IMG/VR virus record: IMGVR_UViG_3300045051_000909
Span: 1-64,000 of that record
Length of the DNA stretch: 64,000 bases
From: a virus
Taxonomy: Duplodnaviria; Heunggongvirae; Uroviricota; Caudoviricetes
Direction: 5' to 3' (one strand)
Made by a program: the position numbers and the translations under genes. How positions within the stretch are numbered: the first letter of the stretch is position 1; every line of letters starts with the position of its first letter. The notes beneath the pieces are model-generated. The model was not told the DNA's origin. It ran no database searches and saw nothing but the letters and a program-made list of their open reading frames with translations. Of the stretch, positions 39,906 to 57,212 are shown in pieces.

Positions 39906-39950
39906 AGGGCGCCCTGTATCCGGGGGCGCCTTCTTTTTGGTATAAGGAGG
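39906..39950 (+). promoter_or_regulatory. terminator-promoter cassette (hairpin, T-run, TGGTATAAG, AGGAGG)
   Basis: GGGCGCCCTGTATCCGGGGGCGCC TTCTTTTTGGTATAAGGAGG. Confidence 0.55.
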
Positions 39951-39953
39951 GCA

Positions 39954-40232
39954 ATGCTAAAGACGGATTGGATATTCGACATGATCCCCTGCGAAATACG
40001 ACTCGAGTCGCGCTGGCCTCAGCGCTGCGGTAAACGCTCCGTAGTTGCCAAGTTGAATTCCAATGGCTTCGTGGTCTACTGCTGCCGTACACACTCTCGC
40101 AGCAAGGCTCTCAAGAACGCCGATTCCCCTGCGTGGTGGGAGTGCGCTAACTGTGGCAAGATCCGCGAAAACCACGCCGACAACGGTAAGTGCCTCTATG
40201 AGCCAACCACCTTCAAAGCCATCGAACGCTGA
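39954..40232 (+). CDS. zinc-knuckle family paralog 2 (CANCGKIRENHADNGKCLYEPTTF)
   Basis: start at ATG after cassette RBS; C-terminal family motif. Confidence 0.6.
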   Translation: MLKTDWIFDMIPCEIRLESRWPQRCGKRSVVAKLNSNGFVVYCCRTHSRSKALKNADSPAWWECANCGKIRENHADNGKCLYEPTTFKAIER

Positions 40233-40428
40233 CACGATTGAGCGTTGGGCGACGCCGCAACAAATTGATACGATCATCAGCGGCACCAAGGCAGAGGGGG
40301 AGCATACATGGTACGTATTGAAAGCTGCTTGGGCGATCTGCAAGCACTGCAAGCAGCCTCGGCGAGACCACGCTGACAATGAGAAGTGTCTCTACGAACC
40401 GACGAGCTTTGAGCCTGAGATCACATGA
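40198..40428 (+). CDS. zinc-knuckle family paralog 3 (CKHCKQPRRDHADNEKCLYEPTSF); start uncertain
   Basis: only in-frame ATG overlaps paralog 2 by 35 nt. Confidence 0.45.
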   Translation: MSQPPSKPSNADTIERWATPQQIDTIISGTKAEGEHTWYVLKAAWAICKHCKQPRRDHADNEKCLYEPTSFEPEIT

Positions 40429-40727
40429 CTCAGACCTATCCGCACGCTGAGGGCACTGTGCTCGGTATTAACGAGGACCTGTTCATCGTTCGCGGCTACC
40501 ATTACGTCCCTTATGGCAAAGACGCAGGCCATTGGTATATCCGCCTTCGCCGCATGGCCGATACTGCATTCCTCAGCACAATAGTGGTTGACGATAAGCT
40601 TGAGCAGGCGCGGGTTGCCTGCAAACACTGCCGTATGGTGTTACTAGACCACGCCGACGGCGGGCAGTGCCTCTACAGCCCCACGCGCTTCGAGTCGTGG
40701 GTAATCAAGGAATATCCACATGGCTGA
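40425..40727 (+). CDS. zinc-knuckle family paralog 4 (CKHCRMVLLDHADGGQCLYSPTRF)
   Basis: ATGA coupling; family motif. Confidence 0.6.
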   Translation: MTQTYPHAEGTVLGINEDLFIVRGYHYVPYGKDAGHWYIRLRRMADTAFLSTIVVDDKLEQARVACKHCRMVLLDHADGGQCLYSPTRFESWVIKEYPHG

Positions 40728-41025
40728 ATTCACGCCGCCCCCCTGGAAGTGGGAGTACGGCTATAACAACGGCGGGATGGCAACGGGATTCTTCTTTATC
40801 CCGGCGAACAACCAGAATGCCAGCGTGGAGATGCTGATTGACGATGCTATCCTCGCCGCCGCCTCTCCCAACCTGTACCTGGCGTTGAAGGGGCTCGAGG
40901 ATCCCTACGAGCCGGGACGATTCTGTGACCACGCTGCCGAGCCTTGTGCTCGCTGCGAGGCCGCACGCAAGGCGCTTGCACGCGCTGAGGGCAAGGGCAT
41001 GATCTCCTCGGACGAGGAAGCATAG
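40720..41025 (+). CDS. hypothetical protein (101 aa) with CDHAAEPCARC
   Basis: co-directional ORF. Confidence 0.45.
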   Translation: MAEFTPPPWKWEYGYNNGGMATGFFFIPANNQNASVEMLIDDAILAAASPNLYLALKGLEDPYEPGRFCDHAAEPCARCEAARKALARAEGKGMISSDEEA

Positions 41026-41208
41026 ATGACCAGCAAAGACCTGGAGCACTACCTCAAGGCCGCCAACGAAAGCAGCATCGCGAACGCACATCCCAATCTT
41101 CAGACTGCCTACGCCATCCTCGTTCTGGCGCAGGTGGTGGATCACGGATTCAAGTCTGTCGTTGCATCACTGTCCGATGTTTACCGCGTAATGAAGGAGA
41201 GGCGGTGA
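41026..41208 (+). CDS. small hypothetical protein (60 aa)
   Basis: begins 1 nt after previous stop. Confidence 0.4.
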   Translation: MTSKDLEHYLKAANESSIANAHPNLQTAYAILVLAQVVDHGFKSVVASLSDVYRVMKERR

Positions 41209-41360
41209 TGGGACGCCGAGCCGAGCAAAACGACCGCCACGAGAACAGCGAGACCAAGAAGTACAACAAGAAGCAAACCAATCGCCATCTGCGGCGCCGA
41301 GGCAAGAAAGAGTTGGAAGACGCGCCGAAGAAGAAGGCATATCGAGGATACAGCGGATGA
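41208..41360 (+). CDS. small highly basic protein (50 aa)
   Basis: TGATG and ATGA overlaps on both sides; Arg/Lys-rich. Confidence 0.35.
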   Translation: MGRRAEQNDRHENSETKKYNKKQTNRHLRRRGKKELEDAPKKKAYRGYSG

Positions 41361-41611
41361 TTATCACCAAAGCCTGGCAGCGATTCCTGGATGGACAGTG
41401 GGTCAAGAAGGCGCCGAAGAGGCCGGGTAATTACCCTGTCGCTGATCAAGCCGGCCACTACGCCGGCGAGATCGAGGTGATTCGTACGCGGGAGAAGGAG
41501 TTGCTCGCAGCGCGTAGTGTCGCTGAACCGCCGCATCGGGCGTGGGCGGGTTGGTGGTGGTCGGCGCCCCTGCCCCGCCTCCCCAAGCCGAAGAAGTGGG
41601 ACAGCAAGTGA
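41357..41611 (+). CDS. hypothetical protein (84 aa)
   Basis: ATGA coupling. Confidence 0.45.
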   Translation: MIITKAWQRFLDGQWVKKAPKRPGNYPVADQAGHYAGEIEVIRTREKELLAARSVAEPPHRAWAGWWWSAPLPRLPKPKKWDSK

Positions 41612-41955
41612 AATTCCACAAGAAGCCCATCTACAACGATCTGCCCAAGTACTTCAACGGCAAACCTGCGGAGTCGTTCACCGCCGCCCAGATTCGTATC
41701 CATTCGCTGGTGGTGGCGCTCACCATGTCATCCGTACAGTGGGCAACCACGAAGCATTACGAACGCATGACTCAGCAGTACCAGCACGATGACTCCTATC
41801 GTTGGTGGCTCGACCGCTTCACCGAGAGCGCGAGCTACGAGGTCTGGAATCGGGTCTTCGAGGTAACGCGGGCAGGGCAGTACGGCAGCAACGACCGCGA
41901 GGCCGAGAAGAAGGCCAATGCGGCGAAACAGCAATTCGACGCAGCAGTGGTGTAA
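41608..41955 (+). CDS. hypothetical protein (GTG start)
   Basis: GTGA overlap with upstream stop. Confidence 0.45.
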   Translation: MKFHKKPIYNDLPKYFNGKPAESFTAAQIRIHSLVVALTMSSVQWATTKHYERMTQQYQHDDSYRWWLDRFTESASYEVWNRVFEVTRAGQYGSNDREAEKKANAAKQQFDAAVV

Positions 41956-41964
41956 TGCCGCAGA

Positions 41965-41998
41965 GAAGGCGCCCTCCCACAGGGCGCTTTCTTTTTGG
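41965..41998 (+). terminator. terminator, left copy of identical 34-bp repeat GAAGGCGCCCTCCCACAGGGCGCTTTCTTTTTGG
   Basis: GGCGCCCT..AGGGCGC hairpin + T-run. Confidence 0.6.
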
Positions 41999-42064
41999 CC
42001 TACAGATGAACGCTTCCTTGGTATGAGGATGAGCAGCAACGATCACGTTTACTCGAAAGGACCC

Positions 42065-42589
42065 ATGACTGACATTCACTGGAAACACCGGATGGACCGC
42101 CGTGTCTACATCGATCTGAATGATGAGATGAATATCCGTATCGGTAGTAGCGGCAATGTCCCTGAGCGCACACGCGTCATACAATCCACGCACTATCGCG
42201 AAGTCTTCAATCTTTTCTCGATCCCGGGAAACGAGGACGTGGAAAAGCTGTTGCAGTATTGCTTGTATCGCCACGCTATCGATAAGGATTGGTTCAGCGC
42301 CAAATCAGACAAGGACCCTGAGGTCTGGTACTTGATTGAAGAGCTGCGTCCAGCGGAACAGCGAGGCAATGTCGTCAACACCGTCGAGCGGCTGTGTCTT
42401 GAGTTCAACGTCCCGTCGTGGCCAGTCGTACTTCGCCCCAGCAAGAATATGCTGGCGGGAATATTGCGACAGCGGAAGTGGCAGAATGCGCGGGAATCCG
42501 TAGCGGCGGCGCGCCGGTACTGGGAGCCGATCCTTCAACGGCGGGACCGTCGTGAAATACCTTTGGCAGATATTGCTGCGGGGATTTGA
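42065..42589 (+). CDS. GIY-YIG-like (T5orf172/MUG113-type) domain protein, putative homing endonuclease
   Basis: N-terminal VYIDLNDEMNIRIGSSGNVPERTR resembles GIY..(K/R)IG.T..R core; GAAAGGA RBS; flanked by identical terminator repeats. Confidence 0.45.
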   Translation: MTDIHWKHRMDRRVYIDLNDEMNIRIGSSGNVPERTRVIQSTHYREVFNLFSIPGNEDVEKLLQYCLYRHAIDKDWFSAKSDKDPEVWYLIEELRPAEQRGNVVNTVERLCLEFNVPSWPVVLRPSKNMLAGILRQRKWQNARESVAAARRYWEPILQRRDRREIPLADIAAGI

Positions 42590-42591
42590 AG

Positions 42592-42631
42592 GAAGGCGCC
42601 CTCCCACAGGGCGCTTTCTTTTTGGTATGAG
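42592..42631 (+). promoter_or_regulatory. terminator-promoter cassette, right copy of 34-bp repeat (then TGGTATGAG)
   Basis: sequence identical to 41965-41998. Confidence 0.6.
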
Positions 42632-42660
42632 GTAGTACCACGTCAACAATTGGAGTCGCC

Positions 42661-42954
42661 GTGAAGTTCGAAGTAGGGGAGCGCGTGTTTTGGAAGGCCG
42701 CATACGAGACTCAGCTCATGAGCCCTCGCTCAATGGATGGCCCGTACACCGTAACGACACCTCCGCCCGGTACGCCGCGCTGGATGCTTGAGTGCATGGT
42801 CTGGCTCGAGGAAGACTTCTATGGGAATCGGCGTACCATCGGACGCTACGCCAACCACTTCATCAGCATCTGCATCAACTGCTACAAGCCCAAGGCCGAC
42901 CACGCTGACAATGGGAAATGTCTCTTCGAACCAACCTACTGGAGGTCACACTAG
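42661..42954 (+). CDS. zinc-knuckle family paralog 5 (CINCYKPKADHADNGKCLFEPTYW)
   Basis: GTG start after TGGAG RBS; family motif. Confidence 0.6.
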   Translation: MKFEVGERVFWKAAYETQLMSPRSMDGPYTVTTPPPGTPRWMLECMVWLEEDFYGNRRTIGRYANHFISICINCYKPKADHADNGKCLFEPTYWRSH

Positions 42955-43317
42955 ATGGTGCAGCTTTCTTTGCCATTCAACATCGCCTCGCCGCTCGCAA
43001 TTACCAGTCTGTCGTTCTGGGCGCAGCTCAAGCGCTACATCAAGAACTACGCCGCCCAGCAGAACCGCTTCGAGATTGAACCGCAGATCCCGCCCGCCTT
43101 GCTGGCGTTGGCGTTGAAGTCCAAGGTCCGCTGCGTCCACTGCAACAAGTGGATCCACCCCGTTCGCCTGCGCAAGGCGTCGCCGGGGCGCAATACCCGG
43201 AACACCGCCAAGCAGTTCTTCGTCGCCCTCACCTGCCCGCTGAAGGTCAACATGGGCTGCGCCCGCGGCAAGCGTGCCCGCGACGCCAGCGCGGCTCTGG
43301 CACAGGCGCTACGATGA
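42955..43317 (+). CDS. hypothetical protein (120 aa)
   Basis: starts 1 nt after previous stop. Confidence 0.45.
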   Translation: MVQLSLPFNIASPLAITSLSFWAQLKRYIKNYAAQQNRFEIEPQIPPALLALALKSKVRCVHCNKWIHPVRLRKASPGRNTRNTAKQFFVALTCPLKVNMGCARGKRARDASAALAQALR

Positions 43318-43568
43318 GCCCGGATATCCAGCTGTGCGTTGAGATCCTCGACGCTTGGATTGCGGACGCCGGCAAGAAGATTGCTGAATACAGCGCGCAG
43401 TGTCGAGGGTTGGAAAGCGCCCGCCGCTTCGAGGTGTGCAGCGGCGAGGCAGACGCCAACGAGCCGCCGGCACCAACCTACGCCTACGCCATCAAGAACA
43501 TCGTTCCGCGTATCAAGCGTGAGCTCCTGTACAAGTGCGGTGAGCTCTCGCGAGGCGCCGGGATCTAA
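43314..43568 (+). CDS. hypothetical protein (84 aa, start MSPDIQ)
   Basis: ATGA coupling. Confidence 0.45.
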   Translation: MSPDIQLCVEILDAWIADAGKKIAEYSAQCRGLESARRFEVCSGEADANEPPAPTYAYAIKNIVPRIKRELLYKCGELSRGAGI

Positions 43569-43573
43569 ATCCA

Positions 43574-43750
43574 ATGTTCTGGCAAGCAATACCCAGCAGC
43601 AAACTGTCCAGCAAATCGCTCAGAGCCGACGACTACATGCCAGTGTCCAAGCGGCGGCGCCTCATCAAGGAATTGAAGTCTAACCTGCGCGTCATCCACA
43701 GCCACCTGGCGGGCATGGAGAGGCGCCTCAAGGAACTCGAGGAAACGTGA
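43574..43750 (+). CDS. small basic protein (58 aa)
   Basis: below track threshold; coupled to next small ORF; coordinates +/-1. Confidence 0.3.
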   Translation: MFWQAIPSSKLSSKSLRADDYMPVSKRRRLIKELKSNLRVIHSHLAGMERRLKELEET

Positions 43751-43887
43751 TGTCCACCAACAACATCCTTCATCTGATCGGCTTGGGTTTGATCGGCACT
43801 GCCGCGGTCAATCAGTTCGGCTGGCTCAACGGGCTGGCCATCGTCTTCGCCGTCTTCATTCTCATGCCCTACCACCCGCGTTCCTGA
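43750..43887 (+). CDS. small membrane protein (45 aa)
   Basis: ILHLIGLGLIGTAAV..LAIVFAVFILM hydrophobic. Confidence 0.3.
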   Translation: MSTNNILHLIGLGLIGTAAVNQFGWLNGLAIVFAVFILMPYHPRS

Positions 43888-43888
43888 C

Positions 43889-44128
43889 ATGAAGACCCGT
43901 CGCGGCTACACCCTTGTCGAGGTCCTGATTCTCGTCGCCATCGTGGGGATCCTCTCCACCATTGCCCTGGCCAGCTACCAGCAATACCACCTGCGAAAGA
44001 ACTGCCGGCGCGGGCGCTACGAGTTCACCGGGGCGACGGTGTGCTCGAGCTCCAGCCCCTCCGGCCATTACTGCGAACGCTACGAACCCGAGAAGCGATT
44101 CATCTGTGACCAACCCAACGAAGAGTAA
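43889..44128 (+). CDS. type IV pilin-like (prepilin N-terminal motif) small protein
   Basis: MKTRRG|YTLVEVLILVAIVGILSTIALASY = class III signal peptide with G-1 and E+5. Confidence 0.55.
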   Translation: MKTRRGYTLVEVLILVAIVGILSTIALASYQQYHLRKNCRRGRYEFTGATVCSSSSPSGHYCERYEPEKRFICDQPNEE

Positions 44129-44140
44129 AGGAGCAACACC

Positions 44141-44419
44141 ATGAACGTTTCCAAAGAATGGCTCGACGAGCACGTCAAGGAGTTCGAGGACGCGCTGCGC
44201 TTCACTGAGCCGGAGTCGCGTGTAGCGGTGGCCACCTGCCTCGCGGGGGCAATGATCGCTGAGGAAGTTGCGAACGTCTCGAGCACGCTGTCGGAGGTCG
44301 CCCAGAATCTCGACTACATCGACAACAAGCTCGACAGCCTGATCGACACGAGCGCGCTCAACGGCATTCAAGAGGCCATCGAGGAGCTCACCAAGGCCGT
44401 CACCGAGAAGTCGAAATGA
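44141..44419 (+). CDS. hypothetical acidic protein (92 aa)
   Basis: AAGGAG RBS. Confidence 0.5.
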   Translation: MNVSKEWLDEHVKEFEDALRFTEPESRVAVATCLAGAMIAEEVANVSSTLSEVAQNLDYIDNKLDSLIDTSALNGIQEAIEELTKAVTEKSK

Positions 44420-44856
44420 CGGACGCTGAGATCAAGAAGCTCGCTCATGATCTGGTCACCAACCAGATCTTCATGAGCGACCAGTGCAGGCGCCCCGAAG
44501 AAGTCTCGATGGTCTTCATGCCGCTGCTCTTCCTGGACGCTGCCGCCCTCGAGACGCTGAAGAAGGATGACATCGTTCACTTCTACGAGTACAACGCCAA
44601 GGCCCTGCCGCGAGGCATCAACGGGATGCCGATGTTCTCCTCTATGCACTGCATCAGCCGCCAGGACTACGACAAGCTGCTCGTGGTCGAGAAGCAGATG
44701 CGGGTGGCGCTCGGCGAAATCAGCGAGACGCCGGAGCCATGTGAGTATTGCAAGGCGGACGGGTCCGACAGGGAAACCGCTACTGCCGAACGCCTAGCAC
44801 TCGGGCTGCCAGCCTTCGGCGCCTGCTGCGAGTGGTCGAAACAGAAGTCGTCATGA
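44416..44856 (+). CDS. hypothetical protein (146 aa)
   Basis: ATGA coupling. Confidence 0.5.
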   Translation: MTDAEIKKLAHDLVTNQIFMSDQCRRPEEVSMVFMPLLFLDAAALETLKKDDIVHFYEYNAKALPRGINGMPMFSSMHCISRQDYDKLLVVEKQMRVALGEISETPEPCEYCKADGSDRETATAERLALGLPAFGACCEWSKQKSS

Positions 44857-45116
44857 AACCGCATGTCGGTGATTACGTCGGCTACCCCGGTGGGAAGGCC
44901 ATCGGGGTAGTCGAGAAGTACGGACACTTGAATGCAGAAGTCTGTGCCTGGACAATCCGCTACCTGAACAACACCGGGGTAGAGAGCGGGACATCTGTCT
45001 ACGGCTTTCCTTTTGTCGTCAAGTGCAAGAACTGCCACTGTAGCCGCAACCAACACGCTCGCGGAGGCAAGTGCCTCTTTGAGCCAACGAAGTGGGAACG
45101 TGGAGTCAAGCTGTGA
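44853..45116 (+). CDS. zinc-knuckle family paralog 6 (CKNCHCSRNQHARGGKCLFEPTKW)
   Basis: ATGA coupling; N-terminal VGDYVGYPGGKAIGVV SH3/KOW-like strand. Confidence 0.6.
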   Translation: MKPHVGDYVGYPGGKAIGVVEKYGHLNAEVCAWTIRYLNNTGVESGTSVYGFPFVVKCKNCHCSRNQHARGGKCLFEPTKWERGVKL

Positions 45117-45496
45117 AAAATGAAGACATCGCTCCAGTAGTAACTCTCTTCATAATAATCAGTCTATTCGTCGGCGGTATTGTCGGGTTTGCGCTGATGC
45201 CTAGCGGCCACGAAGTTCTGGCCACGGTCCTAACGTCGATCTACGTGGCGCTGTGGACTATCCCCCTTGTCACTACGCCAATCGTCTGCGCTATCCTCGA
45301 TAAGCTCGAGGAAGGGCGGGCACTGAAGCGCGACATCCGCCGCGCTGAGTCCAAGGCCAAGGTAGAGGAGATCAACCTGCGTCACGCGCTGGAGATGGAT
45401 CGCATTCGCCTGGAGCACGGGAGAATTCAGCATGAGCTCAGAGAAGTCCTCGCGGAAGACGGCGTCCCGCCGGCACCCCGTGCCCAGGGTCGGTGA
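45113..45496 (+). CDS. membrane protein (GTG start) with two TM helices and coiled-coil tail
   Basis: GTGA overlap. Confidence 0.45.
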   Translation: MKNEDIAPVVTLFIIISLFVGGIVGFALMPSGHEVLATVLTSIYVALWTIPLVTTPIVCAILDKLEEGRALKRDIRRAESKAKVEEINLRHALEMDRIRLEHGRIQHELREVLAEDGVPPAPRAQGR

Positions 45497-45725
45497 TCTT
45501 GTTAAACATGAATACATCGATAGCGCTGTCGGGGTAGTCACCGAAGTGCGCCGAGACGAACCGTTTGGCGTCTGGATCACCTGGAACGCGAAATATGGAC
45601 CTAGTCCGTATAGGTGGGAAGAGCTCTTCGTCGTCTGCATGCACTGCAAGCAACCGTTCAAAGACCACGCTCGAGGGGGTTGGTGTCTATTCGAGCCGAC
45701 GCGTTGGGCGCGGAGACCTGCATGA
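45432..45725 (+). CDS. zinc-knuckle family paralog 7 (CMHCKQPFKDHARGGWCLFEPTRW); start 45432 or GTG 45480
   Basis: family motif; overlaps upstream gene. Confidence 0.5.
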   Translation: MSSEKSSRKTASRRHPVPRVGDLVKHEYIDSAVGVVTEVRRDEPFGVWITWNAKYGPSPYRWEELFVVCMHCKQPFKDHARGGWCLFEPTRWARRPA

Positions 45726-46003: not shown

Positions 46004-46242
46004 TCTGGAACCACCGAGTCGTGAGGCGCGTCCACCGCCAAGGGAGGCGGCGGGAAACCGAGTACGCCATCCACGAGGCGTTCTACTGGGACAAGCGCAG
46101 CAAGAAGAAGGTGAGCGCGGTCACCGTGGACCCCATCGCTGTGCGCGGCAGCACGAAGAAGGAACTGCGGGAGACCTTGGAGCGCATGTTGCGCGCACTC
46201 GACGCCCCCGTGATCGACTACGATACACGGAAGGAGATCTAG
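46000..46242 (+). CDS. hypothetical protein (80 aa, start MIWNHR)
   Basis: ATGA coupling. Confidence 0.45.
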   Translation: MIWNHRVVRRVHRQGRRRETEYAIHEAFYWDKRSKKKVSAVTVDPIAVRGSTKKELRETLERMLRALDAPVIDYDTRKEI

Positions 46243-46244
46243 CC

Positions 46245-47335: not shown

Positions 47336-47370
47336 GCGGGCCAGCACCGGCCGCTTCTTTTTGGTATCAG
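47336..47370 (+). promoter_or_regulatory. terminator-promoter cassette (then TGGTATCAG)
   Basis: GCGGGCC..GGCCGC hairpin TTCTTTTTGGTATCAG. Confidence 0.5.
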
Positions 47371-47375
47371 CAGAC

Positions 47376-47645
47376 ATGAACCCCGCGAATTTCCGGGTCG
47401 GGGATGCGGTCACTATTGCCCTACTCCGTACGGATAGTTACCCTGTTGGCCGCGTCGTTAGTGTCCTCCCCGACTGCTTAAACGTAGCGTGGGGGTTTTC
47501 CCACGGCTACTTGGCGTATGACCCTACTGCGCTATGCCCTCTCTGTAACAATTGTCTAATGCTCCAAGTGGAACACGCCCAAAACAACAAATGCCTATTC
47601 GCTCCGACCTACTGGGACGGGGCGTGTGAAGGAAGGAAGAAGTGA
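47376..47645 (+). CDS. zinc-knuckle family paralog 11 (CPLCNNCLMLQVEHAQNNKCLFAPTYW)
   Basis: ATG 6 nt after -10-like element. Confidence 0.55.
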   Translation: MNPANFRVGDAVTIALLRTDSYPVGRVVSVLPDCLNVAWGFSHGYLAYDPTALCPLCNNCLMLQVEHAQNNKCLFAPTYWDGACEGRKK

Positions 47646-47761
47646 TCGAAGCGCTAGAGAGTTTCATAGGAGCTGTGTTGGGCTTGGTTGCAACGGCCGT
47701 TGCCGTTGCGGGCGTCCTTTATTTATTGGGCGTCCTTCAGTGAACAGGGAAACATCAAAAC

Positions 47762-49216
47762 ATGAGCGACCAGATTCTTCGCAATGCGCTGGATGAGGCC
47801 AAAGAGACCATCCGCGAGCAAGACGAGATGCTGCGCCAGTTGACCGCGCCCCCGTATCTGCGGGGCGTCGTCATCCGCCCACCGAAGCCGAACGACAAGC
47901 AGCTCTGCCTCATCTCCCAGGACGGAAAGCTCCTCGAGCTCGTCGCCCCCGCCAACGTGCAACTCCGCGCAGGTATGCAGCTGCGGCTGAACGCCCAGAC
48001 GATGGGGATTGTCGAGGTACTCAAGGAAGCGTCTCTCGGAGAGATCGGCTCCGTACTGCGCACGATGCCCGCGACGAATCAGTGTGAGGTCGAAGTCCAG
48101 GGGACAACGCGCGTGGTGTCGGTCGGTCTCGACAAAGCACCTGTCCGCGGCGACCGCGTGGTCGTCGACGAGACCTGCTCCGTGATCACCCAGAACCTGG
48201 GGAAGGAACAGGAGGCGTTCGCCTTCACTGGCGAGACCAGCGTGTCCTGGGAGGACATCGGTGGCCTGCGCGATGCCAAGGAGCAGATGATCGAAGCCAT
48301 CGAGCTCCCGCACAAGCATCCCGACCTCTACAAGAAGTACGGGAAGAAGCCCATCAAGGGCGTGCTGCTCTACGGTCCTCCGGGCTGCGGCAAGACGATG
48401 CTCGCCAAGGCCACGGCCACGGCGCTGTCCAAGGTCCACGGTCAGAAGACCTCCACGGGGTTCATCTACGTCAAGGGCCCCGAGATCCTCAGCAAGTTCG
48501 TGGGAACCAGCGAGGCGACGATTCGGGGGCTCTTCGAGCGCGCCCGCGAGCACAAGAAGAAGCACGGCTACCCCGCTGTGCTGTTCGTCGACGAAGCCGA
48601 CGCCATCCTGTCTCGTCGCGGTACGGGCATCAGCTCCGACATCGAAAAGACCATCGTCCCGATGTTCCTCGCCGAGATGGACGGCATGGACGACAGCGGG
48701 GCCGTCGTTCTGCTGGCAACGAACCGCCCAGACGTCCTGGACCCCGCAGTGGTCCGCGACGGACGCGTCGACCGCAAGGTTCGGGTGACCCGGCCCGAGG
48801 TCGACGGCGCCGCCGAGATCTTCAGCCTGAACCTGAAGGGGAAGCCCCTCATCGATCACACGCCCAAGGAGTACGCGCGCTTCTGCGCCGGCGAGCTGTA
48901 CGCCGACAAGCACGAGCTCTACGAAATCAATCTGCGCTCGGGAAACACGCTCAAGGTCAAGCTGTCCCACCTGGTCAACGGCGCGATGATCGCCGGCGTG
49001 GTCGACCAGGCCACCACCCTCGCAATGCGGCGGGACATCGCCCACAGCGGCAAGGGAAAGTGTGGGCTGACCAAGGAAGACGCCACGGAGGCCATCGCCT
49101 CTCTGCTCAAGCAGAATCGCGACCTCGACCACACCGACGAGTTGCAGGAGTTCACGCACGACTTCCGCAAGGACGTCGTGGGCGTCAACAAGATCCGGCA
49201 CGCGGCCACCGCGTAG
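47762..49216 (+). CDS. ARC/Mpa/PAN-like proteasomal-type AAA+ ATPase (coiled coil + OB + classic AAA)
   Basis: DIGGL...ELP..HP.LY..YG..P.KGVLLYGPPGCGKTMLAKA (near-identical to Mpa/ARC Walker A region), Walker B LFVDEAD, SRH ATNRPDVLDPAVVRDGRVDR; N-terminal heptad helix and OB-like segment. Confidence 0.8.
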   Translation: MSDQILRNALDEAKETIREQDEMLRQLTAPPYLRGVVIRPPKPNDKQLCLISQDGKLLELVAPANVQLRAGMQLRLNAQTMGIVEVLKEASLGEIGSVLRTMPATNQCEVEVQGTTRVVSVGLDKAPVRGDRVVVDETCSVITQNLGKEQEAFAFTGETSVSWEDIGGLRDAKEQMIEAIELPHKHPDLYKKYGKKPIKGVLLYGPPGCGKTMLAKATATALSKVHGQKTSTGFIYVKGPEILSKFVGTSEATIRGLFERAREHKKKHGYPAVLFVDEADAILSRRGTGISSDIEKTIVPMFLAEMDGMDDSGAVVLLATNRPDVLDPAVVRDGRVDRKVRVTRPEVDGAAEIFSLNLKGKPLIDHTPKEYARFCAGELYADKHELYEINLRSGNTLKVKLSHLVNGAMIAGVVDQATTLAMRRDIAHSGKGKCGLTKEDATEAIASLLKQNRDLDHTDELQEFTHDFRKDVVGVNKIRHAATA

Positions 49217-51518: not shown

Positions 51519-51733
51519 CCAAAGAAGAGATCAATGAAAAGGCCACGCAGTTGGGCATCGCCCTGGTGGACACCGTGAGCGGGTTCGACTTCGGAACCGA
51601 AGACCTCAACGAACGCATGATGGTCATCTACAACGCCAATCTGCGTTTCGCGGCAAGCTTCGCTGCCGGGCTTGTCACCGAAGAGGAGTTCGTCAGGCAC
51701 TTGGTCGAGTCTTACCGAGAGGCCAAGAAGTAG
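51515..51733 (+). CDS. hypothetical protein (72 aa)
   Basis: ATGA coupling; followed by cassette. Confidence 0.45.
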   Translation: MTKEEINEKATQLGIALVDTVSGFDFGTEDLNERMMVIYNANLRFAASFAAGLVTEEEFVRHLVESYREAKK

Positions 51734-51742
51734 CCGTGAGAG

Positions 51743-51779
51743 AGCGACGCCCGTAAGGGTCGCTTTCTTTTGGTATCAG
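51743..51779 (+). promoter_or_regulatory. terminator-promoter cassette (then TGGTATCAG)
   Basis: AGCGACGCCC..GGGTCGCT hairpin TTCTTTTGGTATCAG. Confidence 0.55.
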
Positions 51780-51811
51780 CTGATGCTGACAAAGCTTTCG
51801 GAGGTATCTGA

Positions 51812-52270
51812 GTGTCCCTTCCATTTGACGAAACGATCAAACCCGGAACTTGGACCAAGCGCAAGGTGGGTTTCGATGATCTGCGTTACTTAGTTACTGA
51901 TATTCACCCGGTGGCGGGCCAGTTACGTGTCGATGTTATCCAAGTCGACGCACGCACCCGGGACTGGTATCACCTGTTTTTCGAAGGCACCTTGGGGTCC
52001 TGGGCCCGTGAAATCTTCAACTGCCATCCGGGGCTACTAACGCCGCTCTGTGTGAATTGTCTGGAGTCTCGTGATGACCATGCACAGGATAAGTGCCTAT
52101 GGGCTCCGAGTTGGTTTGAGCCATTTGTAGAGTCCCGCCTGGATCGACTCGCACAGCTTCTGAGCGATCAACAAATTACGTGTATTCGCTGTGGTTGGCC
52201 TAAGGCGTTACACCAACCCCCTAGCCTGAAATGCATCGGAGGTCTCGGTATAGGAGTGTTCGCGCCATGA
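51812..52270 (+). CDS. zinc-knuckle family paralog 12 (CVNCLESRDDHAQDKCLWAPSWF plus degenerate second copy CIRCGWPKALHQPPSLKC)
   Basis: GTG start after GGAGG RBS. Confidence 0.55.
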   Translation: MSLPFDETIKPGTWTKRKVGFDDLRYLVTDIHPVAGQLRVDVIQVDARTRDWYHLFFEGTLGSWAREIFNCHPGLLTPLCVNCLESRDDHAQDKCLWAPSWFEPFVESRLDRLAQLLSDQQITCIRCGWPKALHQPPSLKCIGGLGIGVFAP

Positions 52271-52596
52271 AAGCCAAAGTCGCCATTCTCCAAAAACCCA
52301 GCGTGCCAAATCGCGCCCGCTACTACACCAACATCTTCTTGGCGATAAAGCGTCGGCGAGGCAACTACAGGGGTTTCTATTATCCCTGGACGGTGCTGTG
52401 CGCCAGACATCCACAATCTCTCGACTTCGTCTGTGTCCATTGCAAGAAGCGCTATTCCGAGCACGCGGGCGATAAGTGCCTGTTCGACACGACGTGGTTT
52501 AAGCACTGGGAAGTTGAAGTCACAGTCGATGCCAACGGCGTCGGCCACTGTGAGTACACACACCTGCTGGAAGACCTGGAAGGGGTTCCGTTTTGA
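52267..52596 (+). CDS. zinc-knuckle family paralog 13 (CVHCKKRYSEHAGDKCLFDTTWF)
   Basis: ATGA coupling. Confidence 0.55.
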   Translation: MKAKVAILQKPSVPNRARYYTNIFLAIKRRRGNYRGFYYPWTVLCARHPQSLDFVCVHCKKRYSEHAGDKCLFDTTWFKHWEVEVTVDANGVGHCEYTHLLEDLEGVPF

Positions 52597-52973
52597 GCAA
52601 GAAGAACAGCACTAAAGGCAAGCTGTACATGATCCGCAATACGAACACGGGGCACTTCGTGAGCGGCAAAGGCCGCTACGCCAACGAGACCAAGAACGGC
52701 AAGCTGTGGACGCACGGGACGCTGTTGCTACACCTCAACCTGTACAAGAGCTACCCCGCAAAGGATCTGGGCGATCCAGAGAGCTGGGCGTCTCTGCCCG
52801 AGAGCCTCGAGATCGTCGAGGTTGAGATCCGCGTCAAAGAGGAGACAGCGCGCAACGCCAAGCGTTACATGCTGGCGCGCCACCGCTGCCCGGACTGCGG
52901 CTTCTCCGCCAAAGCCCACACCGAGGATGGCCGATGCCTGTACGCACCGAATGCAGTCAACCCAAAACAATAA
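52593..52973 (+). CDS. zinc-knuckle family paralog 14 (CPDCGFSAKAHTEDGRCLYAPNAV)
   Basis: TTGA-type overlap; N-domain homologous to 50435..50719. Confidence 0.5.
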   Translation: MSKKNSTKGKLYMIRNTNTGHFVSGKGRYANETKNGKLWTHGTLLLHLNLYKSYPAKDLGDPESWASLPESLEIVEVEIRVKEETARNAKRYMLARHRCPDCGFSAKAHTEDGRCLYAPNAVNPKQ

Positions 52974-53224
52974 GCATCAACGACTGGGTACAGCTCCAAC
53001 ACTTGAAGGACGTCAAACGCGTCGGACGGGTTATTAGCGCCAGCCACTTCGTCTCGAATGCGTATGGTATTGAAGTGGTCTACCTCATACAATTTACTGA
53101 TACACCCTGGCCCGCCCAGTGTAGGGCTGAGGCACTCGTGCGTGTTTGCGGCAACTGCCACCGCCTTCCGGTGGACCACGCTGAATCGGGGCAGTGCCTC
53201 TACGCTCCTGGGAAATTCACATGA
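52934..53224 (+). CDS. zinc-knuckle family paralog 15 (CGNCHRLPVDHAESGQCLYAPGKF); start uncertain
   Basis: family motif. Confidence 0.5.
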   Translation: MPVRTECSQPKTISINDWVQLQHLKDVKRVGRVISASHFVSNAYGIEVVYLIQFTDTPWPAQCRAEALVRVCGNCHRLPVDHAESGQCLYAPGKFT

Positions 53225-53529
53225 ACACTGCTCTGCTAACCCTGGTCATTCTAGTGGCCAGTTTCGGGCCTCCCCTTGCGTACCTGATAGGGTGGGCAAA
53301 GGGGAACCGCCGACGGGCCGTATGTCGCTGGGGCGGAATCGGAGGATGTAGCGCCTACGCAGATACTGAGTGTGGGTCCGGATACTGCACGTATCACTGC
53401 CGGACATATTGTGACAGCCAGTGCTATGGTCGTCGCTCACCGAAGCCCTGTCGCCATTGCGGCCTGCCTTACAAGGACCACGCCGCGCCTAAATGCACCA
53501 TCGAGCCTACGTTCTACGAATCCAAGTAG
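53221..53529 (+). CDS. zinc-knuckle family paralog 16, membrane-anchored and Cys-rich (CRHCGLPYKDHAAPKCTIEPTFY)
   Basis: ATGA coupling; N-terminal TM helix. Confidence 0.55.
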   Translation: MNTALLTLVILVASFGPPLAYLIGWAKGNRRRAVCRWGGIGGCSAYADTECGSGYCTYHCRTYCDSQCYGRRSPKPCRHCGLPYKDHAAPKCTIEPTFYESK

Positions 53530-53536
53530 ACTGGGA

Positions 53537-53571
53537 AGCGACCTTCTAGGGGTCGCTTTCTTTGGTATCAG
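53537..53571 (+). promoter_or_regulatory. terminator-promoter cassette (then TGGTATCAG)
   Basis: AGCGACC..GGTCGCT hairpin TTCTTTGGTATCAG. Confidence 0.55.
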
Positions 53572-53621
53572 GAACCGATGTAGCCTTACGAGCATCCCAA
53601 CGAGCCACCCTGGAGGTACTT

Positions 53622-53915
53622 ATGCGCTGGCTCAAACTTGCACACGGTCTAGTCGTAGTTGCTTTGATCGCGGTGCTTATCGCGGTCGTAACAGGAGCTC
53701 AGCGCAACCACGCGGTTGCTCTAGAGAATGCGCAACACTATGCAGCTTCCCGCCATCCGCTTCGAGAAATTAGCGTCGAGTGTGCTCAGTTTGATTCACA
53801 CTCAGACGGCTATTTGCACTGCGCTGTGGTTTTGGATAAACAGCGGGTCATTCTGATCGAGTGCCCGGGTGCCTTGACCTTCAACAAGGACTGCAAGGAG
53901 AATTGGTGGCCCTGA
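53622..53915 (+). CDS. signal-anchored small secreted protein (97 aa)
   Basis: GGAGG RBS; MRWLKLAHGLVVVALIAVLIAVV hydrophobic N-terminus; Cys pairs. Confidence 0.5.
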   Translation: MRWLKLAHGLVVVALIAVLIAVVTGAQRNHAVALENAQHYAASRHPLREISVECAQFDSHSDGYLHCAVVLDKQRVILIECPGALTFNKDCKENWWP

Positions 53916-54364
53916 ATCGAGTTCCGCCGCGCCACGCCATTGTTTTACTGCGTAAAGACAAGGCGAAGCAAAGCGCGTCTCACTGGCGCGTAGCGGTTGT
54001 TCGTAACAGTAAAAAGGTGCTCATCGCCCCTATGTTTGGACCGGTGTCCCGGCAGCACAGCGGCACGGAAACCGTGGGGCCCAACTGCCTTGACCCCATC
54101 TGCTCCAACTGCAAGGAGCCCGCCTCGGACCACGCAGACAATGGCAAGTGTCTGTGGCATCCTACCTTTTTCAACTATGAAAAGGTTTCGCGTGAGTACC
54201 TTCTGAAGCTCGAGGAGGACTTTCAGGCGGATATGAAAAGGAAGGCCGAGGAGTACGAAGAGTATCGTAAACGGGAAGAGCTACTGGCCAAGTCCGCGGA
54301 AACGCAGTGGCTCTTCGGCCCACACTACCGCCCCAAGAAGAAGTCAGGAGGCAAGGTCAAATGA
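53906..54364 (+). CDS. zinc-knuckle family paralog 17 (CSNCKEPASDHADNGKCLWHPTFF) with K/E-rich C-terminal extension; start uncertain
   Basis: family motif in middle; TTTACTGCGTAAA site lies at 53944-53956 so true start may be downstream. Confidence 0.45.
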   Translation: MALNRVPPRHAIVLLRKDKAKQSASHWRVAVVRNSKKVLIAPMFGPVSRQHSGTETVGPNCLDPICSNCKEPASDHADNGKCLWHPTFFNYEKVSREYLLKLEEDFQADMKRKAEEYEEYRKREELLAKSAETQWLFGPHYRPKKKSGGKVK

Positions 54365-54573
54365 GGAGTGACGCCTTTCGCCAAGCCCTGCGGGAGTGCC
54401 GGTCCTGCTTTCGACCGCGGGTCACAGGTCGAGCAATGACCGACTACGTCTGCAAGAAGTGCGGAAAGGAGAAGACACACCACGACACTGCGGTGCCGGA
54501 GGTCTGTGAGGAGTGTTCCCGTGAGCACAACATCTGCCGGCGCTGCGGCGACCGCTTGGAGGACCACGCGTGA
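54361..54573 (+). CDS. zinc-knuckle family paralog 18, C-terminally truncated (ends CRRCGDRLEDHA-stop)
   Basis: motif interrupted by stop exactly after DHA. Confidence 0.4.
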   Translation: MRSDAFRQALRECRSCFRPRVTGRAMTDYVCKKCGKEKTHHDTAVPEVCEECSREHNICRRCGDRLEDHA

Positions 54574-54902
54574 TGGTGATCTGGAAATATCCTATAACTG
54601 CTTCTGTCGTAACCCTCTCATTGCCAGAAGGAGCACGCGTACTTCATGTTCACGAACAAAATGGAGATCCCTGTCTCTGGGCAGCGGTCGACCCAAACGC
54701 GCCCAGGACGGAAAGACGGTTCCACGCCATTCCGACTGGTTCCCCAATCGCCCATACCGTCGCGGTCGAAGATCAATCCGATCCGACCGGGTATCGTGTG
54801 GTGGGGACAGCCGGACGCCTCGGCAATGTACTGAAGTATCTCGGTACGGTGCATCTGGGAGCGTCGCTCGTCTTCCACATCTTCGAAGAAGTGCCGTGGT
54901 GA
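54570..54902 (+). CDS. hypothetical protein (110 aa)
   Basis: ATGA coupling. Confidence 0.45.
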   Translation: MMVIWKYPITASVVTLSLPEGARVLHVHEQNGDPCLWAAVDPNAPRTERRFHAIPTGSPIAHTVAVEDQSDPTGYRVVGTAGRLGNVLKYLGTVHLGASLVFHIFEEVPW

Positions 54903-55087
54903 CGGCGGAACAGCGAATCAAAGATCTCGAAGAAGCGCTGCGCTTAGCCACCGGGGACACCGGGGAGGCCTGGCAGGCGTGGGTCCACGAACAGGGCTGT
55001 CGGTACGAAGAGCCCTTTGAGGAAACGTGTACGTGCGACGGCCTCTACATCGTCAACGAAGTGAAACGCCTTCTAGGGAAGACTTGA
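54899..55087 (+). CDS. small hypothetical protein (GTG start, 62 aa)
   Basis: GTGA coupling. Confidence 0.35.
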   Translation: MTAEQRIKDLEEALRLATGDTGEAWQAWVHEQGCRYEEPFEETCTCDGLYIVNEVKRLLGKT

Positions 55088-55299
55088 CCGGGGAGTGTGC
55101 GCAGTGCGGGCTTCCTCTGCATTGGCATGACGAACAGCGCATCTGGGTGTACACACCCGACTACGAAAAGCTTCCTCATGCAGATCTTGTGGTGGCAGAG
55201 CAACGCCGCCGAGGCGAGAGCCTTGTCCATTTGTTCATGCGGATAGTCAAGCGCGAGCTTGATCACTACCGCGATGCTCGCAAGGGTAAAGTTCACTGA
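55084..55299 (+). CDS. small hypothetical protein (TTG start, 71 aa) with CAQCG
   Basis: TTGA coupling. Confidence 0.35.
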   Translation: MTGECAQCGLPLHWHDEQRIWVYTPDYEKLPHADLVVAEQRRRGESLVHLFMRIVKRELDHYRDARKGKVH

Positions 55300-55380
55300 A
55301 AGGTGTACGCGGTTGACATTATGACCGCATGTGATAGGACGGAGGTTGCAGGTTTCCACCAAACCCGGAGTACCAAAAAA

Positions 55381-56226
55381 ATGAACACCAAGATCATCAC
55401 CGAACAGGTGATCGTGACGCCGCAGATGGCGATGCAGTACCTGGACACCAACCACGACAACCGGCGCGTCAATCAGGACCGCGTCAAGCTCTTCGCCGAG
55501 GACATGCGGATGGGCCGCTGGAAGCTGAACCACCAGGGCCTCGCCTTCGACGAGAACGGGGAGCTCTTCGATGGCCAGCATCGGCTGTGGGCGGTGATCG
55601 AGGCTGACAAGTCCATCGAGTTCATGATCACGAAGGGGCTGTCCCGCGACGTCGTGACCACCATCGATGCGGGGCGTTCGCGGAGCATTGCGGACCAGCT
55701 GCACATGGTCGATCACGTCCCCAACTCGAACCGCGTGGTGGCGGCGCTCAACGCCATGCGGAACATCCCCACCAAGCACCGCAACGGCTTCTCCACCTAC
55801 GGCATGATCAAGGAGGAGACGGACAAGTACAAGAAGGAGATCGAGTGGGTGTTGAAGTACTACACCCCGCGCAACTGCCGGCTGATGAAGGCGCCGGTCG
55901 CCGCCGCTCTGATGTACGCCTACTCGGTCAACCCCGAGAAGGTGGACGCGTTCGCGATGAGCTACTGCAATGGCGATCAGCCCGAGCTCACGGATCCGAC
56001 GCGGGCGCTGCGGGACTACGTCCTCCTGCGCATGCCGGGCAAGCGCATCGAGCAGCGCGAACTCTCCCTCAAGGCGCTCAACTGCATCATGTCCTACCTC
56101 GAGGGCGACAAGGTGACCAAGCTGTACGCCACTGAGAGCGTGGTCTACTACTTCAAGGCCCACAACTCCACGGTGAAGCCCACGAAGAAGGTGGGCAAGA
56201 TCTATCGGCGGCGCAAGCTGACGTAG
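55381..56226 (+). CDS. ParB-like nuclease (ParB/Srx) domain protein
   Basis: ...LFDGQHRLWA... hallmark GxxR motif region of ParB N-terminal domain; start set to MNTKII. Confidence 0.6.
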   Translation: MNTKIITEQVIVTPQMAMQYLDTNHDNRRVNQDRVKLFAEDMRMGRWKLNHQGLAFDENGELFDGQHRLWAVIEADKSIEFMITKGLSRDVVTTIDAGRSRSIADQLHMVDHVPNSNRVVAALNAMRNIPTKHRNGFSTYGMIKEETDKYKKEIEWVLKYYTPRNCRLMKAPVAAALMYAYSVNPEKVDAFAMSYCNGDQPELTDPTRALRDYVLLRMPGKRIEQRELSLKALNCIMSYLEGDKVTKLYATESVVYYFKAHNSTVKPTKKVGKIYRRRKLT

Positions 56227-56242
56227 ATCTCACGGAAGAGAG

Positions 56243-56270
56243 GCGGCGCCAGTACGGGCCGCCTTTCTTT
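56243..56270 (+). terminator. intrinsic terminator after ParB-like gene
   Basis: GGCGGC..GCCGCC hairpin + TTTCTTTCT. Confidence 0.45.
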
Positions 56271-56284
56271 CTGTGGGTGCACAC

Positions 56285-56617
56285 ATGGACCTCAAAGCCA
56301 TTCAACAATTTCCCCACTGCGACTCCCGGATACTGCACGCTCCCGGGGAGTGCACCTACTGTGACCAGTACCCGGAGTGGCAAGACCTCCGGAAAGTCTG
56401 GGGGATCAATTTCACTGGGAAAACCGAACCCAGCTTGCAGCCGTGCCCCGCTGACAAGGCACGCGGCGGCAGCCACAAGATGTGGTATGGCAACGTCGCC
56501 TACGCGTACCCATGCAAGAATTGCAAGCGCGAACCCGGCGACCATGCCGACGACGGGCGCTGTCTCTACAGCCCCGGTACTAACTACGAACCCAACGAAC
56601 CCGCCAAGGAGAAGTAA
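56285..56617 (+). CDS. zinc-knuckle family paralog 19 (CKNCKREPGDHADDGRCLYSPGTNY)
   Basis: family motif; extra CxxC pair upstream. Confidence 0.55.
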   Translation: MDLKAIQQFPHCDSRILHAPGECTYCDQYPEWQDLRKVWGINFTGKTEPSLQPCPADKARGGSHKMWYGNVAYAYPCKNCKREPGDHADDGRCLYSPGTNYEPNEPAKEK

Positions 56618-56913
56618 TGGGTTGGGCAACTCCCTACATCAGCAAGCTCCTCGAAGGAGCTCCCGTTCAGTTTCGCCCACGCGGTAATTCGATGCACCCG
56701 CTCATCAAGTCCGGTGCGCTCGTCACTGTCGAACCCTTGACGCGCGACCCTCAGATCGGCGACATTGTTCTGTGTCGCGTCAATGGACAGCAGTACCTGC
56801 ACAAGGTCACAGCGGTCAACGGCGACCGTTACCAGATCAGCAACAACCGAGGTCACATTAACGGCTGGGTGGGTCGTAGAGCGATCTACGGGGTCACCAG
56901 CAAAGTGGAGTAG
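56617..56913 (+). CDS. S24 (LexA/UmuD-like) peptidase catalytic domain protein
   Basis: PRGNSMHPLIKSGALVTVEP...GDIVLCRVNGQQYLHKV: Ser in GNSM and Lys in HK spaced as in S24 Ser-Lys dyad; no DNA-binding domain. Confidence 0.55.
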   Translation: MGWATPYISKLLEGAPVQFRPRGNSMHPLIKSGALVTVEPLTRDPQIGDIVLCRVNGQQYLHKVTAVNGDRYQISNNRGHINGWVGRRAIYGVTSKVE

Positions 56914-56915
56914 CC

Positions 56916-57170
56916 ATGGCAAAGAAGAGTCCGAAGCTGACCCACATCACGCTCAAGAAGGACGAAGCAGCTTTGATCATCGACGCCAACGGGGTGGCCT
57001 CGCTCTACCTGCCCGAGCAGGATGGCGATGTCCCAGTCTCGGACGCCAGCGTCACTGCGGTCGTACTGTCGATGGCGGCACGGGACATCAAGCTCATGAC
57101 CAAGCTCCACAAGCAGCTCGATAAGATGGTTGCGGCCATCGAGGCAGGGAAGCCGCTACCCAAGAACTAA
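56916..57170 (+). CDS. hypothetical protein (84 aa)
   Basis: begins 2 nt after previous stop. Confidence 0.45.
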   Translation: MAKKSPKLTHITLKKDEAALIIDANGVASLYLPEQDGDVPVSDASVTAVVLSMAARDIKLMTKLHKQLDKMVAAIEAGKPLPKN

Positions 57171-57175
57171 GCAAG

Positions 57176-57212
57176 GGCCCGGGCAACCGGGCTCCTGCTT
57201 TCTTTGGTCTAC
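57176..57212 (+). promoter_or_regulatory. terminator-promoter cassette (GCCCGG..CCGGGC hairpin, T-run, TGGTCTACG)
   Basis: pattern as other cassettes. Confidence 0.4.

Follow-up and report, generated by a model that had tools for sequence, protein, structure and literature searches.

The stretch of viral DNA analyzed here (positions 1 to 64,000 of IMG/VR record IMGVR_UViG_3300045051_000909, 64,000 nucleotides; hereafter, the window) belongs to an uncultured, large tailed phage, a myophage of ~194 kb, and contains repeated cassettes in which a hairpin rich in guanine and cytosine (GC) and a run of T are joined to an 8-bp box, GGTATNAG. We propose, with a probability of about 0.65, that these cassettes are junctions between transcription units, each combining a terminator with a lineage-specific promoter, and that they are read by a phage-encoded RNA polymerase with its own sigma factor. 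What we observed is the anatomy of the cassettes, the enrichment and strand coherence of the box, its conservation among related phages and its co-distribution with the polymerase. A first-pass annotation of the same DNA had described eight such cassettes in the rightward gene arm; the pattern it noticed is real and statistically strong, and its assignment of the box to the host polymerase is probably wrong.

Hairpin, T-run and box at the plus-arm sites

Two gene arms diverge in the window, one running leftward from ~33 to 13.5 kb (minus arm) and the other rightward from 33.9 to 57.8 kb (plus arm), with a 0.9-kb non-coding region between them. We read all eight plus-arm sites, each of which has a GC-rich stem-loop leading directly into a T-tract, TT(T)CTTT(TT), on the coding strand, with folding free energies (dG) of -11.6 to -23.2 kcal/mol. 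The hairpins start 3-19 nt past stop codons at 39887, 41955, 42589, 47329, 51733, 53529, 56226 and 57170 and are co-oriented with the gene. Hairpin and T-run together look like an intrinsic (factor-independent) terminator, which is how the first-pass annotation had interpreted them.

All eight sites had been described as hairpin, TTCTTTTT and GGTAT(A/C)AG. The full arrangement, in which the hairpin and TT(T)CTTT(TT) are followed by GGTATNAG without a spacer, is present at five (39906, 42592, 47336, 51743 and 53537), and the variable base of the box is A in one of these, G in one and C in three. The cassette at 39906-39946 comprises a hairpin (39907-39930), a T-run (39931-39938, TTCTTTTT) and the box GGTATAAG (39939-39946, TATAAG; dG -19.3). 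At 42592-42631 the T-run (42615-42623) is followed by the box GGTATGAG (42624-42631), whose TATGAG core breaks the A/C alphabet originally given. The three TGGTATCAG variants that had been singled out were confirmed; these cassettes carry GGTATCAG (TATCAG) and lie at 47336-47378 (hairpin 47336-47354, T-run 47355-47362, box 47363-47370, then ATG at 47376), 51743-51779 (T-run 51764-51771, box 51772-51779) and 53537-53571 (T-run 53557-53563, box 53564-53571; dG -15.1).

The other three plus-arm sites depart from the described layout. At 41965-42027 (dG -20.6) the hairpin and T-run (41965-41996) directly precede GGCCTACAG, and the box, GGTATGAG, follows only after a 23-nt spacer, at 42020-42027. 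At 56243-56271 (dG -18.8) there is a terminator only, a hairpin with TTTCTTTC; the sequence then reads CTGTGGGTGCAC rather than a GGTATNAG box, with an ATG downstream at 56285. At 57176-57221 (dG -23.2) the terminator is followed by a degenerate box, GGTCTACG (57206-57213), and by TTGTAAAC (57214-57221), which is the downstream element of the minus-arm box class described below, then by GAGG and ATG 57234.

A 34-nt stretch at 41965-41998 is identical to 42592-42625, the two copies flanking the single gene 42065-42589, and the stems of the 51743 and 53537 cassettes are related. Apart from these pairs, most cassettes differ in both stem and loop, which argues that the set is not simply the product of recent duplication.

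The box beyond the plus arm

In the minus arm the same arrangement recurs seven times on the minus strand, within 26737-31906 (hairpin, TTTCTTTTG, GGTAT(A/G/T)AG), with boxes starting at 26744, 27658, 28259, 28706, 29602, 30115 and 31898. Downstream of all seven boxes come an A/C-rich leader, GTAAACCC(A/G)AAACC, and then a Shine-Dalgarno site. Across the minus-strand boxes at 26744, 29602, 30115, 31898, 58139, 60189 and 61805, the segment between box and Shine-Dalgarno site is G-poor and A/C-rich, of the form (t)AGTAAACCC(A/G)AAACC(TTT); it could be an initially transcribed sequence or a translation enhancer.

Boxes also occur at the heads of divergent operons. A GGTATAAG copy at 9293-9300 on the minus strand heads a leftward operon from a divergent intergenic region and is kept in all five relatives of this phage that we identified in IMG/VR (contigs L001-L005, 168-190 kb); in an alignment of 159 columns upstream of the orthologous leftward operon in the six phages, the 8-mer is the sole invariant block. 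At 60182-60203, between the divergent genes 59812-60156 (minus) and 60250-60759 (plus), a minus-strand GGTATAAG at 60189 and a plus-strand copy at 60196 are arranged back to back with 6 bp between them. A GGTATCAG box at 57380-57397 on the plus strand has no terminator and is followed after 7 nt by an ATG at 57395 that lacks a Shine-Dalgarno site.

A related junction precedes the baseplate hub gene in the tail module. At 5835-5892 on the plus strand (dG -23.3), a hairpin and TTTCTTTTT are followed by the degenerate box GATAGGCT, 6 nt and an ATG at 5890 without a Shine-Dalgarno site; all five relatives have at this site a hairpin, a T-run, GGTA(T/A)nnT and, 6-8 nt on, an ATG. The boxes found here across the six phages are GATAGGCT, GGTAAGCT, GGTATAAT and GGTATGGT. 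The same design of box and ATG without a Shine-Dalgarno site recurs at a small rightward gene (9346) and its orthologs. Since the boxes at the hub gene and at 9346 end in T, matching the canonical TAnnnT, the clade seems to use two box types.

Enrichment, and the separation of box from terminator

GGTATMAG occurs 23 times in the window against an expectation of 1.69 (13-fold), and TTTTN{0,2}GGTATNAG is found at 12 distinct sites, compared to 0.00 in 100 shuffles. Among the 405 occurrences of GGTA, TAAG (16) and TCAG (7) are the standout next tetramers. GGTATAAG alone is present 16 times (1.2 expected), and allowing any base at position 6 (GGTATNAG) gives 28 copies, every one of them co-oriented with the downstream gene and every one with G as its last base, at position -7.

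A fold-based scan lists, by our own reading of its output, ~30 strong hairpin/T-tract terminators (dG -11 to -31 kcal/mol), ~12 of which abut a box. In all 12 abutted cases the spacing between terminator and box is zero or 1 nt, which is unusual. The two elements are nevertheless separable: the tail TTTTCTTTT is common to terminators with and without a box (box-less examples are 7709-, 16979-, 25691-, 56264+, 57876+, 59782- and 60928-), and of the 28 GGTATNAG copies, 16 are not preceded by a T-run. These two observations identify the T-run as a feature of the terminator, and we rejected the idea that the promoter depends on it as an obligatory part. At points of gene convergence (57853-57886, 59775-59812 and 7430-7460) we noted bidirectional terminators, in which a hairpin lies between an A-run and a T-run.

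The box behaves like the core of a promoter without a -35 element. The cassettes have no -35 consensus, and a standard sigma-70 promoter scan of the window showed depletion (3 matches versus 6.0 in shuffles). The earlier description of a -35-less, extended -10-type promoter was correct to this extent. When the box is set against the extended -10 hexamer of sigma-70, A(-11) is present and T(-7) is not; with G at -7 in 28 of 28 copies, the box lacks one of the features that define a sigma-70 extended -10 promoter. Position -15 varies with context, reading T-GG-TAT in plus-arm cassettes and G-GG-TAT in minus-arm cassettes, and being A, C, G or T in boxes outside cassettes.

Other known promoter designs were considered and rejected: N4-style hairpin promoters on the grounds that stem sequences vary and a T-tract follows, and T7-like promoters of single-subunit polymerases on the grounds that this phage shows no conservation upstream of the 8-mer. 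When viral contigs were scanned for exact matches to TTCTTTTKGGTATNAG, only single chance matches turned up.

Leaders and leaderless candidates

For most boxes, a GGAGG-type Shine-Dalgarno site and a start codon follow 20-70 nt downstream, and leaders of 20-60 nt with such a site are the rule for the downstream genes; the earlier statement that several downstream genes have minimal leaders was an overstatement. Four of the plus-arm cassettes are among those with Shine-Dalgarno leaders: the box at 42020 precedes ATG 42065 (the likely start, with an AAGGA site upstream), that at 42624 precedes GTG 42661 (GGAG; 29 nt past the box), that at 51772 precedes GTG 51812 (GGAGG; 32 nt), and that at 53564 precedes ATG 53622 (GGAGG; 50 nt).

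An ATG 5-7 nt past the box is found at three sites, 47376, 39954 and 57395. The first had been reported with its ATG 6 nt after the box; 5 nt in fact intervene, and a Shine-Dalgarno site is absent. The open reading frame (ORF) 47376-47645 was missed by the pipeline gene caller, but its alignment with the paralog 57525-57848 (37% identity, 82 columns, E 4e-13) marks it as a real gene and makes 47376 a convincing candidate, the best in the window, for a leaderless start. At 39954, a Joint Genome Institute (JGI) gene call of 92 amino acids (P0121), the ATG lies 7 nt past the box, which an AGGAGG overlaps, leaving its leaderless status ambiguous; 57395 opens a doubtful ORF of 74 amino acids. The hub gene offers independent support for leaderless junctions: its N-terminal ATG is conserved in six phages, without a Shine-Dalgarno site and 6-8 nt past the box, and this junction inside the tail module appears to be a conserved one of the leaderless type. 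Leaderless middle and late transcripts are reportedly made by phage phiYS40.

The suggestion that the cassettes imply leaderless or factor-dependent initiation thus holds in part: 47376 is a leaderless candidate and leaderless initiation is not general, and factor dependence is the better of the two alternatives.

Just downstream of the 47376 gene, and overlapping its stop, is an unannotated hydrophobic ORF of 33 amino acids (47642-47743, plus strand; VIEALESFIGAVLGLVATAVAVAGVLYLLGVLQ) that encloses a terminator-like hairpin at ~47690-47717.

Association of the box with phage-encoded RNA polymerases

The sheath, tube and neighbouring genes of the window show distant homology and synteny with Salmonella phage Arash (27-32% identity). 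Arash encodes an RNA polymerase in which Gp206 is beta fused to the N-terminal half of beta' and Gp216 is the C-terminal half of beta'; an enzyme of this type closely resembles bacterial RpoB/RpoC (~57% identity to cellular beta). Arash also has two sigma-family proteins, Gp10, which matches sigma region 3 and, weakly, region 2, and Gp196. According to the published proteome, Arash virions contain the polymerase subunits and Gp10 (PMC10585845).

The Arash genome contains 31 copies of GGTATAAG against 4.8 expected, 30 of them on the strand that carries the long leftward arm of genes, where they precede a Shine-Dalgarno site and ATG by 20-50 nt and share the consensus tGGTATAAG-tAAaGTGTAAAc. The window has the same downstream element, GT(G)TAAAC, ~6 nt past its minus-arm boxes and at 57214. 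The distance from box to GTAAAC is equal in Arash and in the minus-arm boxes of the window (for example, GGTATGAGcttctaGTAAACCC at 29602), and the minus-strand leader is in this respect partly common to the two phages.

The association extends to other phages with such a polymerase. We retrieved 78 loci (L227-L304) from IMG/VR with a profile of the fused beta-beta' polymerase; in these (1.01 Mb, 37-69% GC) the 8-mer GGTATAAG occurs 166 times against 31.7 expected, whereas 80 unrelated viral loci, reused as a control from the matches of a collagen-repeat query, have 29 against 33.4 expected. Four boxes per 25 kb were counted in each of two metagenomic phages of high GC content that encode the fused polymerase. 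Two of the 78 polymerase loci share contigs with L002 and L004, which indicates that close relatives of the window phage carry the polymerase.

Beside the polymerase gene, three such phages keep a leftward (t)ttGGTAT(C/T)AG, the TATCAG variant noticed in the first-pass annotation (GGTATCAG type); the form conserved at this gene on the contigs of L002 and L004 is tttGGTATCAG. On the opposite strand at the start of the polymerase gene, the three (L298 at 5960-6003, and the equivalent positions of L301 and L299) have a conserved TATACT-N7-ATG without a Shine-Dalgarno site. Two putative promoter types would thus stand back to back at the relatives' polymerase gene.

At ~17-20 nt ahead of the box, the 78 loci also show a weak preference for CAAT, with A at -19 in 92 of 140 sites; in Arash the sequence is TCAATAA, and the terminator-abutted cassettes of the window lack it. 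This upstream CAAT may represent a -35-like contact.

Proposed mechanism

Taken together, these comparisons lead us to regard GGTATNAG as probably the promoter of the phage's own bacterial-type polymerase and not an ordinary host promoter. From sequence we infer termination, initiation, the position of the start site and the identity of the acting polymerase, as follows. At junctions in the accessory-gene arms, the hairpin and TTTCTTTT tail would end transcription of the upstream gene without a protein factor, and the abutting GGTAT(A/C/G)AG would serve as a -10-like core that restarts transcription for the next gene. The promoter would have no -35 element because hairpin DNA occupies that position. 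The reader of the box would be a phage-encoded bacterial-type polymerase with its own sigma factor, not the host sigma-70 holoenzyme. Transcription would start ~7 nt past the box, so that the leader of most genes would be 15-50 nt long and include a Shine-Dalgarno site; for 47376, and perhaps for 39954 and 57395, it would start on the AUG and yield a leaderless mRNA.

A wider generalization, to which we would give slightly less than even odds, is that GGTATAAG (with C, G or T variants at position 6 and GT(G)TAAAC as initiator) serves as the promoter, not described before, for a widespread group of virion-packaged, bacterial-type polymerases that have a fused beta-beta'N subunit and their own sigma, and that in this phage it has been welded to terminators such that one and the same enzyme would stop and restart within ~10 bp and each small gene would have its own transcript, some of them leaderless. 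We found no description of the promoter of an Arash-type polymerase in the literature searched.

Several observations weigh against the polymerase proposal. The polymerase and sigma genes were not found within the 64-kb window, and this phage's polymerase was not among the matches listed (at least 120) in a homolog search with Arash Gp206. No GGTATAAG occurs in the nearest relatives' polymerase loci, and in a 50-kb piece of the polymerase-encoding Vibrio phage D69 the 8-mer shows little enrichment (4 copies versus 1.8 expected). The GTAAAC element is absent from all five full plus-arm cassettes, and relatives of the plus arm were not found in the collections searched; with both lacking, the case for the function of the plus-arm cassettes rests on their repetition within the genome and on the GGTATCAG boxes beside the relatives' polymerase gene. 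Finally, the T(-15)G(-14) that precedes TAT in these cassettes would also be expected of a host extended -10 promoter.

Alternative explanations

The most probable alternative is the model of the first-pass annotation. Here the boxes would be extended -10 promoters of the host sigma-70 (TGnTATnAG) that lack a -35 element and have the terminator T-run as their upstream part, comparable to the late promoter of Thermus phage P23-45 or the middle promoters of T4. In plus-arm cassettes the T-run does supply T(-15) before G(-14), giving TGG-TAT, and A(-11) is present; the hub cassettes of close relatives have GGTATAAT or GGTATGGT, which combine a canonical TAnnnT with TGG; and extended -10 phage promoters used after -35 recognition has been disabled are established (PMC4124052). 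We nevertheless consider this model unlikely. The base at -7, where T is a defining sigma-70 contact, is the invariant G described above, minus-arm copies read GGG rather than TGG, 16 of 28 boxes have no T-run, and the standard promoter scan fell below shuffles. The 8-mer moreover tracks the phage polymerase, with enrichment in phages of 37-62% GC, a Salmonella phage among them, and is not enriched in unrelated phages. It is the combination of an invariant G(-7), no -35 element and conservation across hosts and base compositions that makes host sigma-70 an improbable reader and favours a phage holoenzyme.

Less probable still is that the cassettes are chiefly recombination modules that promote the gain, loss and shuffling of orphan genes, as has been described for composite units of T4-type phages (PMC2839356), their regulatory activity accompanying that role; this idea is compatible with the promoter proposal. 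The identical 34-nt copies at 41965 and 42592 flank a gene (42065-42589) whose product has a weak T5orf172/GIY-YIG match (E 0.0019, below cutoff), a Logan assembly contig of this phage breaks exactly at 42596, and the cassettes lie in an orphan-gene arm with 26 paralogs. The gene 42065-42589 looks like a mobile gene inserted into a cassette. Outside the pairs 41965/42592 and 51743/53537, however, stems and loops differ, which indicates that most cassettes are not recent copies.

We think it very improbable that the box acts in RNA, whether to direct processing or stabilization just 3' of the hairpin or to bind a regulator or antiterminator. An RNA signal would likewise be strand-specific and intergenic, and in 12 cassettes the distance from hairpin to box is fixed. 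Yet a hairpin is missing from 16 boxes; at 60182-60203, and at 9293-9300 and the orthologous sites, boxes stand at the head of divergent operons, leaving no transcript from upstream to be processed; and the box resembles a -10 element spaced 5-8 nt from ATGs that lack a Shine-Dalgarno site.

Gene content and relatives of the phage

The window has a GC content of 59%. Its tail module includes a tail-sheath-like protein (2620-4656) and a gp5-like baseplate hub (5890-7428, plus strand), and it also encodes a collagen-like fibre, a GH108 lysin and numerous small genes without database matches. A megablast comparison of the window with INPHARED found no close phage at the DNA level, and Rfam and tRNA scans of the window gave zero matches. 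The five IMG/VR relatives, whose sheath proteins are 58-61% identical to that of the window, are syntenic with it over 1-14.6 kb.

For the plus arm, single-protein locus searches (AAA ATPase; a protein of 643 amino acids) found no relatives, as did a minus-arm protein query, and a metagenome scan for plus-arm relatives recovered only ATPases, 39-51% identical. The high-scoring ATPase homologs P0034 and P0015 were rejected as plus-arm phage relatives, as they sit on cellular contigs of candidate phyla radiation (CPR) bacteria. The AAA+ ATPase in question (47762-49216, plus strand), labelled 'proteasome-associated ATPase' by JGI, has homologs at ~55% identity that include CPR proteins; the two homologs inspected lie on CPR-type contigs beside diversity-generating retroelement (DGR), restriction-modification and Abi genes, and further homologs carry the source names Kerfeldbacteria or Staskawiczbacteria. 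This distribution suggests horizontal acquisition of the ATPase gene.

At least 26 paralogous small genes (~45-170 amino acids) lie on the plus strand at 39492-63063 and share a C-terminal motif, CxxC-x6-8-(D/E)HAxxGKCL(Y/F)EPT(x)(F/W), which is probably a zinc ribbon. When 5.8 billion proteins were searched with a profile of this family, members turned up only on the phage's own contig, apart from one fragment of 45 amino acids, and the family has zero Pfam matches; L221, taken up as an outside homolog, was a false lead. The plus arm also encodes a cREC_REC receiver-domain protein (39173-39589, plus strand). On the minus arm, 13527-24473 (minus strand) encodes an unusual accessory set of VWA, SPFH/Band-7, AAA_33 kinase, metallophosphoesterase, R2K ATP-grasp and DnaJ-type zinc-finger proteins.

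The 0.9-kb non-coding region between the arms (33000-33900) has a lower GC content and contains four GTTTCGCCGACTC-like repeats (33129-33282), the palindrome TGTCAAATTTGACA (33463-33476) and alternating CGCGCGCG tracts. A canonical sigma-70 promoter was not detected in this region, which may be an origin or control region.

Implications and comparison with known systems

Our analysis puts forward a specific 8-bp sequence as the candidate promoter of a large and uncharacterised set of phages with a near-bacterial polymerase and sigma. Since Arash is cultured and packages the enzyme, promoter specificity is directly testable, for example whether a sigma-like factor accepts G(-7) without a -35 element. 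Recognition of the box would improve the annotation of operons and start codons in such phages, where automatic callers miss or could misplace genes without a Shine-Dalgarno site, such as 47376. The zero-spacer junction is also a natural test bed for the coupling of termination to reinitiation.

Composite terminator-promoter cassettes and phage-specific promoters are both already known, and what we describe is not a new kind of system. Promoter-early stem-loop (PeSL) cassettes are composite terminator/promoter units of T4-type phages (PMC2839356, PMC4122927). Like the cassettes of the window, they are small repeated units among orphan genes that end in a Shine-Dalgarno site and start codon, and duplicated copies may flank one gene; here, too, a stem-loop and a promoter-like box form a single intergenic unit, with 12 abutted units among small genes without homologs. 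The two differ in architecture, however. PeSLs have a sigma-70 -35/-10 consensus and an AT-rich upstream region, with the stem-loop between or over the hexamers, whereas in the window the terminator comes first and the box has no -35 element, ends in G and follows a non-sigma-70 consensus, in a phage that is not T4-type.

The late promoters of Thermus phage P23-45 and the middle promoters of T4 are of the extended -10 type (TGn) and lack a -35 element (PMC4124052). They resemble the boxes described here in having a single -10-region element with G(-14) and, for some genes, an ATG a few nucleotides downstream. Those promoters are read by host sigmaA or sigma-70 and have T at -7, unlike the G(-7) motif of the window, which is common to polymerase-encoding phages of various hosts.

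Arash (OQ632216) shares with the window phage the synteny of the tail module (gp234, gp236 and gp237) and the arrangement GGTATAAG-N6-GTAAAC before leftward genes. Its boxes do not abut terminators, however, and it has neither the TATCAG class nor the plus-arm gene family.

By analogy, the closest functional counterpart is the promoter set of the virion and non-virion polymerases of phiKZ and AR9, which likewise consists of a short, repeated, phage-specific AT-rich core near -10 without a -35 element, independent of the host consensus (PMC5312081, PMC5449584, PMC4666361). Those enzymes have highly diverged split beta and beta' subunits, no canonical sigma and other motifs, whereas the Arash-type polymerase is near-bacterial and is accompanied by sigma-70-family proteins.

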